Shown: in pieces, positions 1-3,000 of the stretch
How the letters are laid out: every line of letters begins with the position of its first letter
Numbering within the stretch: position 1 is the first letter of the stretch
Source of the DNA: Pseudobdellovibrionaceae bacterium
GTDB taxonomy: Bacteria; Bdellovibrionota; Bdellovibrionia; Bdellovibrionales; Bdellovibrionaceae
Length of the DNA stretch: 18,826 bases
Direction of reading: 5' to 3'
NCBI GenBank assembly: GCA_044359815.1
Contig: JBIKLL010000055.1
Span: forward strand, 1-18,826
Program-made: the position numbers

Positions 1-3000
1 AAATGTTCAAATGTTCAAATGTTCAAATGTTCAAATGTTCAAATGTTCAAATGTTCAAATGTTCAAATGTTCAAATGTTCAAATGTTCAAATGTTCAAAA
101 AATCTTTACCGCCACAGCGGCGGCAAGCGGATGTGTCATTTGAAATCACCAGATCTATTTTTTAAAAATAGGGAAAAAAATTAAAGATTCTTGCGAACAA
201 AAGTTTTGTCCGGAAAATACTTTTTGATAAATATTTATTATTTTTTCTTGACCAGCTTTTGCCTCAAATAATGGCCTCAACTAAAAGTCTTCGATCAATA
301 TGAAGCCCCCCTGGTTGTGTCCAAAAAAAATCTCAATACAGACGGGTTTACTGCGCATATAAGGCTGCAATAGAAATTTTAAAAACAGAGACTCAATTCA
401 GCAAAAGCGCAAAATACCGAATTAAAAAAGTCATGGTAAACAATCTCGAAATAGAAAATAGAAAATAGAAAATAGAAAATAGAAAATAGAAAGGATCATT
501 ATGCAAAAAACAGTGCCAACTAAAACAAATATTTCTTCCGGAGATTTGATTTTGAAACTCAAAATGTCAGTCAATCAAGAACGTCAGCTACTTGAACAGA
601 TACTGAAAATGATCGCGGAAATTGATCAGCGCAAAATCTATCTAGAAAAATCTTACCCTTCGCTATTTGAATTTTTGACTAAAGAAATCGGCTATTCCGA
701 AGGTGCCGCTCAAAGGCGCATCGATGCGGCCAGGCTACTTAACAAAATCCCTGAAATCAGCACCAAAATAATCGATGGATCAATCAAGCTATCACAGATC
801 TCGAAAATGCAGACTTTTGTGCGTCAAATGAAGAAAATCACCGGCAAAACCATCGATCTGAGTAAACAAAAAGAGCTGCTTGTAAAAATTGAATCTCAAC
901 CTGCTCTGCTAACTGAAAAAATTTTGGTCAACGAGTTCAATTTCAAACCTTTGCAGCCAACTATAGTAAAGCCTCAGTCCGATCAATCAATAAGGCTCGA
1001 AATAACTTTTACTGAATCTGAAATGCAGATTCTGAAACAGGCCCAGGAAAAATTGTCGCATAAAACTGGAGGCGGCCTTAAGGAAACGATCATACAAATG
1101 GCAAAAAATTTGAACAGTCAAGCCACTTCAAAGAGAATTCATAAATCTTCTGAAGAGTCGACACAAGCGCAATTGCATATGCAAAGTAAAGAGAGCACAA
1201 AAGACAAAGACAGCACCAAAGAAACAGACAAATCTAAAGCTAAAGGCAAAGATAAAAATAGAGATAAAGATAAAGATAGAGATAAAGATAAAGATAGAGA
1301 TAGAGATAGAGATAGAGATACAGATAGAAATAGAGATAAAGGCAAAACTAAATTGATCGAAAAATTTGTTTTTTGCGGCGATAATTCTACTGCCACAGCG
1401 GCGGTGAGCACGTGCAGCAGAGATAGAACTCAATCGAATCTGAAAATTTCGAAAACTATAACGCCTAATATTCGAAAATACATTTTCAATCGTGATCTTG
1501 GCTGCCAATTCACAGATCACAAAACAGGAAAAGTCTGTGGCTCAAGGTATTTTTTAGAAATCGATCACATTCAACCCAAATGGAATGGCGGTAACAATCA
1601 TCAAAAAAATCTGCGAACGCTCTGCAGCCAGCATAATAAATTTAGATACATTCAAGGCCGATAATGAGTTTAATAATCGAATAATCGAATAATCGAATAA
1701 TCGAATAATCGAATAATCGAATAATCGAATAATCGAATAATCGAATAATCGAATAATCGAATAATCTTCAATTTATCTATTTGTCCAATCAGCCAGAAGG
1801 ATAGAGAGCAGAAAAACTTTGGCAACTACGGGTTATTCAGTTTGCTGTGATAAAAGCAAATCAATCTAATATATATAAATTCGAAAGCCGACTGACCCGT
1901 AATATCCCGTCAATGTCATTTCGCGGTTTGATCCGTCAGAGTTCAGCGCGACAGTACCTTTGGTTTGGGCCCCGCCGATATTAGTGACGTCTTTATTGTA
2001 ATTCATCGATGCAAATTCCATCACTCGGTAGCCCGCTTCAAAATACATCGTGGTTGTATCAAAAGCCAAAATTTCACCACCAGCTCCGTACTGATACATT
2101 GTTGAAGTTCCTTTAAGCTCTTCGGCAAAATCTGCTGTGACACCTAGGTCAGTCGTTCCTTGAGGCGTGAATGTAAAATTATTTGTCGCAGTCAGTGTCG
2201 ATGAACCGCCTTCAACAAAAACGAACCATCTGGAATCTTTGGTCGCCTTGAAATTAAAATCCAGTCCGATTTTTGGTGAAACCGCACTCAAGCTGCTGTC
2301 CAAGCTAAACAGCTCTTGATTGCTGGCATTGTAGCCCTTTGATTCTTTGATCATCGCGGGCATAAGGATTTCCACAGCAAATCTGAAATTCAATCGGGGG
2401 CTGGCCCAAGCAAATCCAAACTCCCCACCTAACAAAGATTTAAATTTAGATTCTAGGGTAGTGGAGACTCCTGTGGCTTTAGATACAGTTGTGTTTTCAA
2501 AACCTGATCCATAAATGCCCTTCAGGTAAGGTGCAAATTTTGCGGTATTCATATCAAAGACATAAGCATGTGCTGTGCTGAACACTGCAAAATTGAAGAG
2601 AGCACTCAGCACTATAAAGCGTAGGGCCGACATCATTTATTTGTGTTCCACCAAATCCAAAACTAATTTTGCACTGGCCTTGTTACTGCCTTTTATATTG
2701 TAAACCTTGGCCTCAATATTTTTTTTCAGATCTAAAATAATACTGGTGTAGGAATTTTGCGCTTCCATAACGACCGAGGCTTTATTGACTAATCTAGAAT
2801 TTAAAAATCTTTGGGCAACAAAGGATTCGTTAAAAGTACCGATATTAGTCTGAGCTAAATCAATCACAACCCGCTTAGTGGGCTTATCCATCAATTCAAT
2901 ATTGTAATAAGCGGGTTCGCCCTTCATAGGATTTCCATGTCGGTCGCCGAATTCGATGACGACTCTTTCAGTTTTTTGTTTATTAGATGCAGTTCTGCGA

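Follow-up and report, generated by a model that had tools for sequence, protein, structure and literature searches.

Three perfect microsatellites surround a single gene at the start of the window (the whole 18,826-nt stretch of a Pseudobdellovibrionaceae contig that was analysed), and the question is whether these arrays have anything to do with the protein that the gene encodes. TRF reported each of them as 100% perfect. Array 1, (AAATGTTC)12.4, occupies 1..99, where it is truncated by the contig start; array 2, (AAATAGA)6.3, lies at 449..492 on the forward strand; array 3, (AATAATCG)11.9, occupies 1672..1766 and begins 7 nt past the stop codon. The gene (501..1664, forward strand) encodes an HNH nuclease of 387 aa, as identified by Pfam, alignment, a structure model and fold searches. 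The plan that the first-pass annotation had drawn for positions 1-1766, with an array, a leader, (AAATAGA)6, the HNH gene and a last array, was seen again at 12.4, 6.3 and 11.9 copies. The best explanation is that it represents a single copy of an HNH nuclease cassette, free-standing and multi-copy, which is common among Bdellovibrionota.

Array 1 stands outside the left edge of the cassette; in the paralogs on contigs C35 and C107 homology starts at the inner edge of the array in the equivalent place. At 9-10 nt past array 1 a regex scan found a GC-rich palindrome, ccgccacagcggcgg (109..123), a near copy of a second one within the ORF, actgccacagcggcggt (1389..1405), which encodes part of the peptide STATAAV about 85 codons before the stop. 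Similar palindromes are present between array and TTGAC in loci L174 and L192, and the 17-mer ACTGCCACCGTGGCAGT occurs also, identical or with a single change, in genomes G008, G016, G017 and G040 and on contig C120 of the genome under study. When the codons of 40 relatives' ORFs were shuffled, at most 3 of 100 shuffles matched the strength of the real palindrome in 10 of the 40. The palindrome at 109..123 is followed by a leader module of conserved length (248..438, forward strand), consisting of TTGAC (248-252), 184 nt and CATGGTA (432-438), a motif that looks like an extended -10 (TGnTA). The module is array-free in the window. It was found in 58 of 80 named loci, with a spacing of 183-185 in 39 and of 165-166 in 15, and no array of these module-bearing loci lies inside it. 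RNAalifold on 20 leaders predicted no pairs that would point to a structured leader RNA, and the sole Rfam match across 8 loci, to a miRNA on array 1, was spurious. Downstream of the gene, array 3 has counterparts in L073 and L084, which begin 0-57 nt past the stop codon, and arrays in a downstream position were also found in L198, L183, L214, L219, L228, L231 and L233. The window stretch is contained in lake-water metagenome runs of 2020-2024; strain variants were not found in metagenome contigs with an exact 42-nt pattern, and a protein scan returned a low-complexity match only.

The genome under study (G000; 2.95 Mb, 125 contigs, 41% GC) was searched for arrays with a unit of 2-12 nt, at least 5 copies and at least 90% matches, overlaps being removed. 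The search counted 24 arrays. Ten lie at most 1.2 kb from an HNH gene (C19, C35, three in C50, which is the contig of the window, three in C101 and two in C107) and four at most 1.2 kb from a gene of a second nuclease family, Y1 (C23, C49, C56, C125), which reproduces the 14 nuclease-linked arrays of the first-pass annotation. The three further contig-end arrays that it had connected with nuclease loci were also recovered: those of C68, C105 and C122 are complementary contig ends of C19, C23 and C35, and C79 and C30 are complementary ends likewise. As counted before, 10 arrays touch a contig end, so that such loci break short-read assemblies. The arrays of C29, C30/C79, C77, C93 and the end of C35 have no nuclease gene within 1.2 kb on the same contig. 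They are those six arrays that had been placed upstream of genes for secreted or outer-membrane proteins; their distance from nuclease genes stands, and an ORF with a signal-peptide-like start was seen to follow the array at C93 and C79. The statement that every locus uses a different unit does not hold strictly, as C107 and C101 share (GAAACA)n in the same 5'UTR place and C29 and C30/C79 share the CTTAG class. The HNH family has 11-12 genes or fragments in this genome; another family of 7 paralogs, up to 83% identical, is array-free.

An HNH gene was found in 30 of the 41 genomes searched, and six candidates for pseudogenised cassettes, with internal stops, were noted. In a first set of 40 HNH-centred stretches (12 genomes, 7 of these with arrays), 23 arrays fell within the gene ±1.5 kb (150,906 bp) against 2 in the outer DNA, which at 502,892 bp is 3.3-fold longer. 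The 80 named Bdellovibrionota loci, some of whose places overlap with the first set, gave 29 arrays in 286,456 bp near the gene and 5 in 774,881 bp of outer DNA. Since some of the named loci come from complete genomes of cultured Bdellovibrio, the association is not an assembly artefact. It extends to other genera, and up to four arrays can surround one HNH gene.

A syntenic site in Bdellovibrio, compared in 21 genomes (20 of 43 candidates plus G008), showed presence and absence of the cassette at a conserved position, with 12 occupied and 9 empty alleles. Arrays were observed in 9/12 occupied alleles, 22 in total and with many different units, and in 0/9 empty alleles (4.7 kb each). The Fisher test gave p = 0.0011, a value that overstates the case because occupied and empty genomes are relatives; by flank identity the two groups are interleaved (65-95% versus 66-74%). 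The arrays thus depend on the presence of the cassette, and their absence where the gene is absent suggests that the gene makes its surroundings hypermutable. The cassette alone is not sufficient, since 27/40 loci of the first set, 59/80 of the named set and 3/12 occupied alleles are array-free, whereas the catalytic residues are invariant in 36/36 aligned proteins. That the nuclease genes are selfish elements, as had been proposed, is supported for the HNH family: with up to 50 matches per genome among relatives and a syntenic site occupied in 12 genomes and empty in 9, its genes behave as selfish or mobile cassettes. For Peredibacter, strain-specific sites of such elements are described in an excerpt of PMC13147790.

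We infer that the arrays are caused by the nuclease or by its binding to DNA. The reading that we prefer, and to which we give an even chance, is slippage that depends on the cassette and is driven by breaks or stalls; the protein encoded there would cause these in cis, by analogy with transposases.

The main rival is the tuning of expression by transcribed arrays. The arrays would then be selected contingency or rheostat switches, in which slippage in the 5'UTR or promoter tunes a costly nuclease here and secreted proteins elsewhere, while selection keeps the tracts long and perfect. Array 2, which is preceded by the TGnTA motif, ends directly 5' of the RBS AAGGA (491-495), with the ATG at 501, and is thus probably part of a transcribed 5'UTR. 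This same place holds (GAAACA)12 in C107, (GAAACA)9.7 in C101 and about one copy in C35, so that C50, C107 and C101 all carry a 5'UTR array; arrays lie 18-45 nt before the start in L082, L085 and L087, and that of L182 begins 26 nt after the motif. The genome also has arrays upstream of the ORFs with signal-peptide-like starts. Array 2 resembles the (ATCTTTC)n of hmw1A/hmw2A in Haemophilus influenzae, likewise a perfect heptamer in the 5'UTR between promoter and start, whose repeat number sets expression inversely to length and whose change in length needs transcription, as stated in the excerpt of PMC12721329. Unlike hmw, the HNH locus has up to four unlike arrays, also past the stop and far upstream, its gene is a multi-copy nuclease and not a surface protein, and its arrays are cassette-dependent. 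Taken as an SSR contingency locus, (AAATAGA)6.3 is placed as such loci are (promoter, 5'UTR or 5' coding region); there are also arrays that sit where this family does not fit. Many lie in positions that would be unusual for a switch, either 250-1400 nt upstream or from the stop codon onwards. All 6 arrays within the HNH ORFs of relatives have a unit of 3 or 6 and leave the ORF open; being 3n, none can shift the frame. We regard selected switches as rather unlikely, although they and slippage caused by the cassette can both hold.

The positions of the arrays are fixed and their content is not. They occupy four places, namely upstream of the TTGAC...TGnTA module, in the 5'UTR, in frame in a disordered linker of the protein, and at or after the stop codon, and they abut the homology edges of paralogs and orthologs. 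Between L162 and L189, the flanks of which are 94% identical, (TGAG)9 corresponds to 2 copies, (GAAAGAA)25 to (GAAGGAAGTAAGAAA)5.5 and about 17 copies of GATA to 8. In L215 about 25 nt separate anchors that enclose approximately 250-400 nt of simple DNA in L214 and L162, and (AACTAAAT)n derives from the third copy of a repeat of about 125 nt. The length differences observed are those between species: arrays grow in situ and turn over from one species to another. It could be supposed instead that the arrays belong to the mobile cassette itself, for instance as variable spacers at its ends that transfer requires or generates, and arrive with it. Their location exactly at the homology edges, and only at occupied alleles, would agree with this. 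However, close paralogs have different units at the same edge (AAAGTATT, AACTAAAT and ATTGTTTG), the (TGAG) and purine-rich arrays of L162/L189 are located in the 94%-conserved flank and enclose an ORF of just 70% identity, and L215 has the same leader as L214 yet is array-free. Arrival with the cassette is accordingly considered improbable.

Neutral tolerance would mean that the genome slips everywhere and that arrays survive in the unconstrained DNA beside selfish genes. The flanks of HNH and Y1 genes are indeed long and non-coding, and in both G000 and G017 arrays also occur away from nuclease genes. Chance was controlled for with intergenic regions that retained at least 300 nt after array removal: an array was present in 6/19 regions adjacent to a nuclease gene versus 4/334 others (171 kb), and all 4 of the latter were traced to nuclease loci (C56, C68, C105, C122). 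As in addition the empty syntenic alleles are array-free and the outer zones of relatives almost so, the arrays are not due to mere tolerance, an explanation to which we assign a very small probability. Smaller still is the probability that cassettes home into pre-existing microsatellites. In keeping with homing, GATA-class units flank the cassette on either side in some species at the syntenic locus (L189/L214), which could mean another origin of the arrays, and related units occur there upstream of the cassette in L162 and downstream of it in L198/L217 and L219; but the empty alleles are without arrays and left and right units differ in 5 of the 6 loci that have both (C50, L073, L183, L198 and L231, not L189). 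The first-pass annotation had let the nuclease genes either create hypermutable tracts or home to them. Its first option is favoured, because the arrays are cassette-dependent and have grown in situ; the second is not supported, given the array-free empty sites and the mostly unlike left and right arrays. Because left and right units differ in most loci, two further possibilities were rejected, namely that the cassette had inserted into an array and that a target-site duplication had been amplified.

The Y1 half of the link is more restricted. This family has 8 copies at 85-93% amino acid identity and 2 distant ones in G000, as had been reported, and was found in 21 of 41 genomes searched. Array-flanked Y1 loci were observed in G000 and in G017 (3/5 loci) and at 0/15 loci in six other genomes; the link with arrays is thus confined to this genome and one relative. 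As noted earlier, homology between the copies is limited to the ORF and about 70 nt upstream and ends near the stop codon; end hairpins are not shared, and the flanks carry locus-specific tandem repeats. The designation RAYT-like could not be maintained, given a score of 23.2 bits against an NCBIfam cut-off of 80 and the absence of flanking hairpins. Like RAYTs and the TnpA of IS200/IS605, Y1 is a lone gene among repeats, with an HUH-like HLH motif and a match to Pfam Y1_Tnp (24.0 bits, cut-off 23). In contrast to them it stays far below both NCBIfam cut-offs (20.9 versus 55 for IS200), it exists as eight diverged copies, and its repeats are locus-specific tandem arrays instead of dispersed REPs; consistent inverted repeats or REP hairpins were not found around the 5 of 8 loci examined.

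The protein encoded in the window scores 25.9 bits with Pfam HNH (PF01844), above the gathering cut-off of 21.4, and the same domain matches 31/36 relatives at E <= 0.001. Residues 26-111 score just below the cut-off of Pfam DUF222 (PF02720; 24.0 versus 24.4 bits), which matches 18/36 relatives at E <= 0.001. In an alignment of 36 sequences C335, C346, D355, H356, N370, C375 and H378 are invariant, so that the catalytic His/Asn/His and the zinc-binding Cys of HNH enzymes are conserved. In the structure model a helical region at the N-terminus (13-225) is predicted with confidence, and a disordered linker (229-312) joins it to the HNH domain at the C-terminus (313-387). The linker contains a DKDR low-complexity tract, which is encoded by an imperfect hexamer/18-mer repeat in frame with the gene (1235..1341, forward strand; TRF and model). 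Fold searches placed the HNH domain nearest to IscB, McrA, a phage HNH endonuclease and a nicking HNH enzyme (Z 6.4-7.5). For residues 26-147 the resemblance is to the KorB/ParB DNA-binding domain at Z 5.0-5.9, in a range (Z <8) that is common by chance for helical proteins: KorB gave Z 5.6-5.9 (99 residues aligned, rmsd 3.5-3.6), ParB 5.8 and Spo0J 5.0, all below the trust level for helical folds, and the Foldseek hits Noc and ParB, at E ~1, are too weak to trust for such folds. Residues 160-231 have a middling fold match with RHH proteins (Z 5-6). A profile search of solved structures by sequence found HNH domains only, as did PHROGs. In a PADLOC search for membership of a defence system the window protein had only a weak HNH-domain match, and neither two paralogs nor Y1 had any. 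As the linker is predicted to be disordered, a tethered nuclease could reach DNA near a bound site.

How the cassette would produce arrays can be pictured as follows. The arrays would be neither imported nor landing sites and would arise repeatedly and independently from local sequence. Transposases provide a model for cis action, and by analogy with them the product may act preferentially on the DNA that encodes it. It would bind the palindromes of the cassette and nick nearby or stall forks, leading to recurrent breakage, and slipped repair synthesis might then turn short proto-repeats into arrays. These would appear where extra DNA is tolerated, i.e. outside the left edge, in the gap between TGnTA and RBS, in the in-frame linker and at the stop codon, and would subsequently expand, mutate and decay quickly. 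An array transcribed in the 5'UTR could additionally alter the expression of the nuclease. In G000 and G017 the flanks of the Y1 (HUH) nickase would be affected as well, either by this process or by lax control of slippage throughout the genome. A more specific version is advanced tentatively: an HNH nickase tethered through the disordered linker to a ParB/KorB-like palindrome-binding domain may repeatedly nick the edges of its own cassette in cis, slipped repair then writing long perfect arrays from arbitrary local sequence, and in two lineages the Y1 nickase may do the same.

Several other drivers were considered and rejected. Hairpins alone do not account for the arrays, as an array was present at 1/17 solo palindromes away from HNH genes against 8/12 near them. 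Recombination between paralogs was discarded on the grounds that the array-rich copies of G001 and G008 have no nucleotide-alignable paralog among those sampled, bar one 53-nt match, and that close pairs such as L101/L102 (90%) are array-free. Loss of mismatch repair was rejected too in a search for mutS, which is present and open in 41/41 genomes, G000 and G017 included. The strand bias of 24 units relative to the gene was uninformative (A>T in 10 and T>A in 10; G>C in 12 and C>G in 5), and exact 14-mers shared between ORF and flanks of relatives gave a weak difference only (7/40 near versus 4/40 far loci).

Free-standing HNH homing endonuclease genes are known from I-HmuI and the mob genes of phage T4, and I-TevI exemplifies the tethered design. 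The HNH gene resembles them in that it encodes a nuclease on its own and occupies a syntenic site in some genomes but not in others; its modelled DNA-binding part, flexible linker and nuclease recall I-TevI, and the closest HNH structures include a nicking enzyme. It differs in that a recognition-like palindrome lies inside the gene itself and in reaching tens of copies per chromosome. Eukaryotic transposons make microsatellites (mini-me/DINE-1, Helitrons, the 3' tails of CR1/L2 LINEs). As here, those arrays arise at set positions within a selfish element or at its ends, and their units vary by copy; they stem, however, from reverse transcriptase slippage or internal proto-repeats, whereas the present element is a bacterial HNH cassette with arrays mostly outside the conserved unit. 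The REP13E12 (DUF222-HNH) genes of Mycobacterium tuberculosis share with the HNH genes the multi-copy state and a C-terminal HNH; they have an N-terminal DUF222, for which the window protein falls just under the cut-off, and the phylum differs. According to the excerpt of PMC10589994, REP13E12 counts as a repetitive element whose surroundings vary, and that excerpt does not mention a microsatellite link. No description of microsatellites tied to HNH cassettes was found in the literature searches made. In our reading the link between HNH cassette and arrays is akin to two known kinds, contingency SSRs and transposon-linked microsatellites.

The birth of microsatellites is a long-standing question, and long tracts in bacteria are normally attributed to phase variation alone, for which they would be selected. 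In the HNH case a defined gene cassette predicts, across genera, where new arrays of arbitrary sequence appear. DUF222-HNH/REP13E12-type elements thereby gain a conserved cis-architecture of palindrome pairs, a 165/184-nt leader and turnover at fixed sites. Since alleles with and without the cassette occur naturally, and cultured Bdellovibrio with complete genomes carry it, the question of whether a nuclease makes microsatellites is directly open to genetic tests. If it does, a protein-coding gene would be a local mutator that writes simple-sequence DNA.

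The layout described for the first 1.8 kb of the window by the first-pass annotation was confirmed: short-unit tandem arrays surround a nuclease gene of the HNH family (ORF 501-1664, 387 aa). All three arrays are perfect. Array 1, (AAATGTTC)12.4 at 1-99, is truncated by the contig start; array 2, (AAATAGA)6.3 at 449-492, lies directly ahead of the RBS AAGGA (491-495) and the ATG at 501; array 3, (AATAATCG)11.9 at 1672-1766, begins 7 nt past the stop codon. Within the gene an imperfect in-frame repeat encodes a DKDR tract (1235-1341). A leader module (248-438) is bounded by TTGAC at 248 and a TGnTA motif at 432, 184 nt apart, and a GC-rich palindrome in the ORF (1389-1405) has a near copy upstream (109-123). 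The remaining window holds ordinary chromosomal genes, including those for an M3 peptidase, NAD kinase, a RecN-like ATPase and CoaE. Two ORFs run convergently to the HNH gene: 1866-2636 (-), of 256 aa, had no Pfam match, and 2637-3245 (-) a weak one to the AMIN domain (17.6 bits versus 20.5).

The HNH protein of the window passed the Pfam HNH model (25.9 bits, cut-off 21.4) and fell marginally below that for DUF222 (24.0, cut-off 24.4). Its AlphaFold model (mean pLDDT 79.5) begins with a helical N-terminal region predicted with confidence (residues 13-225), which is followed by a disordered linker (229-312) and then by the HNH domain, whose nearest structures are IscB, a phage HNH endonuclease, McrA and a nicking HNH enzyme (Z 6.4-7.5). 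The catalytic residues were invariant in all 36 aligned HNH proteins. Residues 26-147 resemble the KorB/ParB DNA-binding domain (Z 5.0-5.9) and residues 160-231 the RHH proteins (Z 5-6), both too weakly for membership; these modelled likenesses are compatible with a protein that may bind palindromic DNA. A GC-rich palindrome of the form CACT-core-AGTG occurs in the linker-coding part of many HNH ORFs; for 10 of 40 ORFs, no more than 3 of 100 codon-shuffled versions had a palindrome of equal strength. That the encoded peptide differs between subfamilies argues for a constraint acting on the DNA or RNA. One core, TTTCCCGGGAAA, appears to resemble the Noc-binding site. Pairs of ORF and upstream palindromes like that of the window were present at four loci of other genomes (L047, L048, L174 and L192). 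In the source genome (G000) such palindromes lie in the linker-coding DNA of HNH genes, just upstream of these genes, or elsewhere as solo copies (35 elements in total, 29 of them outside HNH ORFs); examples outside the window lie at C88:6991-8978, C99:51740-53198 and C49:101584-119978.

Arrays recur at four places of the cassette: upstream of the leader, between TGnTA and the RBS, in the ORF, and at the stop codon or just downstream of it. The upstream arrays end 44-208 nt ahead of TTGAC. Arrays in the ORF sit in the linker wherever this was looked at (C50, the contig of the window; L080 and L083 in relatives), and in relatives all six have units of 3 or 6, the ORFs remaining open. The leader module was found in 58 of 80 loci (L134-L213), where both motifs are invariant and their spacing is quantised (183-185 in 39 loci, 165-166 in 15), while the intervening sequence is poorly conserved. 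It contained no arrays, no shared fold according to RNAalifold and no known RNA family according to Rfam. The main rival explanation is that selection for expression tuning maintains the arrays. The hmw heptamer repeat (PMC12721329) is a good precedent for arrays in the 5'UTR. Tuning leaves unaccounted for the arrays located at the stop codon and those lying far upstream. Tuning and a cassette-driven origin can hold together.

In G000 (2.95 Mb, 125 contigs, 41% GC) 24 arrays were found (units of 2-12 nt, 5 or more copies, 90% or more matches, overlaps removed), 10 of which touch a contig end; those of C19, C23 and C35 have complementary ends in C68, C105 and C122. Ten lie within 1.2 kb of one of the 11-12 HNH genes or fragments, and four within 1.2 kb of a gene of the Y1 family. 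The genome-wide association noted at first pass was borne out by a length-matched comparison of intergenic regions (those retaining 300 nt or more once arrays were removed), in which 6 of 19 nuclease-adjacent regions carried arrays versus 4 of 334 others. Those four also belong to nuclease loci, which disfavours the explanation that arrays are merely tolerated in junk DNA. That every locus has its own unit did not hold, as C107 and C101 both have (GAAACA)n at one and the same 5'UTR position, and C29 and C30/C79 share the CTTAG class. Tetra- and pentanucleotide arrays at C93:1-98, C79:1-36 with C30:21608-21675, C77:18191-18265 and C29:1166-1203, for which no nearby nuclease gene was found on the same contig, look like ordinary contingency loci. 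In C93 and C79 the array is followed, 120-170 nt downstream, by an ORF whose start resembles a signal peptide; a palindrome fragment lies ~230 nt from the C30 array.

The link between HNH genes and arrays replicates outside G000, in relatives that all belong to other genera. Around 40 HNH loci of 12 relatives, chosen from the list of HNH matches and taken with ~18 kb each, 23 arrays (units of 2-20 nt, 4 or more copies, 90% or more matches) lay within the gene ±1.5 kb (150,906 bp) versus 2 in the remaining 502,892 bp further out; 13 loci in 7 genomes had near arrays. A second set of 80 named loci from a genome collection, partly the same places, gave 29 near arrays (286,456 bp; 21 loci) versus 5 far ones (774,881 bp). 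As the latter set extends to complete genomes from Bdellovibrio strains in culture and to one long-read MAG, assembly error does not explain the arrays. The type architecture recurs with different units in relative G001 (L047/L073), in the order (AATGGATTG)14, (ACCAAYT)19.7, HNH gene and (GAAAGGTC)16.8, which begins at the stop codon. In relative G017 several HNH genes lie less than 1 kb from a contig end (contigs C15, C160, C21, C14 and C23; L081-L086), the contig of L082 terminating in an array. Here, as in G000, short-read assembly seems to break off at these loci.

The proposed link to the Y1 family held only in part and does not generalise across genomes. All 8 close copies of G000 (85-93% aa identity; 2 further copies are distant) have some tandem repeat within 700 nt, and TRF hits cover 15.6% of the bases in Y1 flanks versus 2.1% of all intergenic bases. 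Among 20 Y1-centred stretches of other genomes, near arrays occurred only in G017 (3 of 5 loci; 8 arrays near, 1 far), and at none of the 15 loci of G029, G033, G004, G020, G038 and G040. The family is a distant Y1, passing Pfam Y1_Tnp (24.0 versus 23). The label RAYT-like was not upheld: the family fell below the cut-off of the NCBIfam RAYT and IS200 models, and no consistent flanking hairpins were found at the 5 of its 8 loci examined.

Occupied and empty alleles could be compared at a site syntenic over ~7 kb on each side in named Bdellovibrio genomes (L162, L189, L192, L198 and L202), whose left flank gene is present in all 44 genomes of the genus. In L162 and 20 of the 43 other genomes, the cassette was present in 12 (L162 included) and absent in 9. 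Nine of the 12 occupied sites carried arrays, 22 in total with many different units, versus none of the 9 empty ones (Fisher p = 0.0011, the significance being inflated by the relatedness of the genomes); flank identity interleaves occupied and empty genomes. The "empty" allele L222 (G050) has ~2.7 kb of other DNA between the flank genes, with neither an HNH match nor arrays. The array-free empty alleles again speak against mere tolerance. Together with the unlikeness of left and right units, they also disfavour the explanation that cassettes home into pre-existing arrays, as the first-pass annotation had considered; a small doubt remains since GATA-class units flank both sides in a few species.

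Between L162:7976-8917 and L189:7956-8878 the HNH ORFs are 70% identical and the flanks 93-95%, which suggests that the cassette may have been replaced or have diverged very fast. The leaders are unalignable, homology extends no further than the inner edge of a (GATA)n array, and orthologous arrays differ: (TGAG)9 versus 2, (GAAAGAA)25 versus (GAAGGAAGTAAGAAA)5.5, and GATA ~17 versus 8. L215 and L214 have the leader start in common; the ~250-400 nt of G/T-rich simple DNA and arrays present in L214 and L162 are represented in L215 by ~25 nt. In G000, GAAACA is present once in C35 versus 12 and 9.7 times in paralogs, the (AACTAAAT) array visibly grows from the third copy of a ~125-nt repeat, and homology between the C35 and C107 paralogs begins at the inner edge of their unlike 8-mer arrays. 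One HNH subfamily has ~75-nt tandem units downstream, each repeating the gene's own last ~25 nt (cacacaacaattggcgNgg), at C35:1781-2250, C34:921-1140, C17 downstream of 6733 and C107 downstream of 10375. Generation of arrays by recombination between paralogs is unlikely, because array-rich copies of G001 and G008 have no alignable paralog among those sampled, bar one 53-nt match, and close paralog pairs exist without arrays. Hairpins alone are insufficient (of 17 solo palindromes distant from HNH genes, 1 has an array within 250 nt; of 12 near such genes, 8 do), and loss of mismatch repair is ruled out because mutS is intact.

We propose that the HNH cassette would promote tandem duplication at its own edges, and that the arrays would be slippage products arising wherever extra DNA is tolerated. 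The likely cause would be the cassette's own protein acting in cis, by binding its palindromes and nicking DNA or stalling replication nearby. The chances that this whole reading, including the part of the protein, is right or wrong appear about equal. Against it count the array-free cassettes (27 of 40 in the first set of loci, 59 of 80 in the second, and 3 of the 12 occupied alleles at the syntenic site), the invariance of the catalytic residues although most cassettes lack an array, the arrays of G000 with no nuclease gene nearby, and the array-free Y1 genes of most genomes. The pattern suggests two factors: a local one, tied to HNH cassettes across the order, and a genome-wide one, strong in G000 and G017.

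Two Peredibacter strains have 10 and 13 HNH endonuclease genes, partly at strain-specific sites, according to PMC13147790, in the text of which a search for the terms 'tandem repeat' and 'microsatellite' gave no match. No description of microsatellites tied to HNH cassettes was found in full-text searches of the literature outside subscription journals. The known relatives of the phenomenon are bacterial contingency SSRs and transposon-linked microsatellite genesis, and there is a real chance that the association of HNH cassettes with arrays represents a new mutational mechanism.
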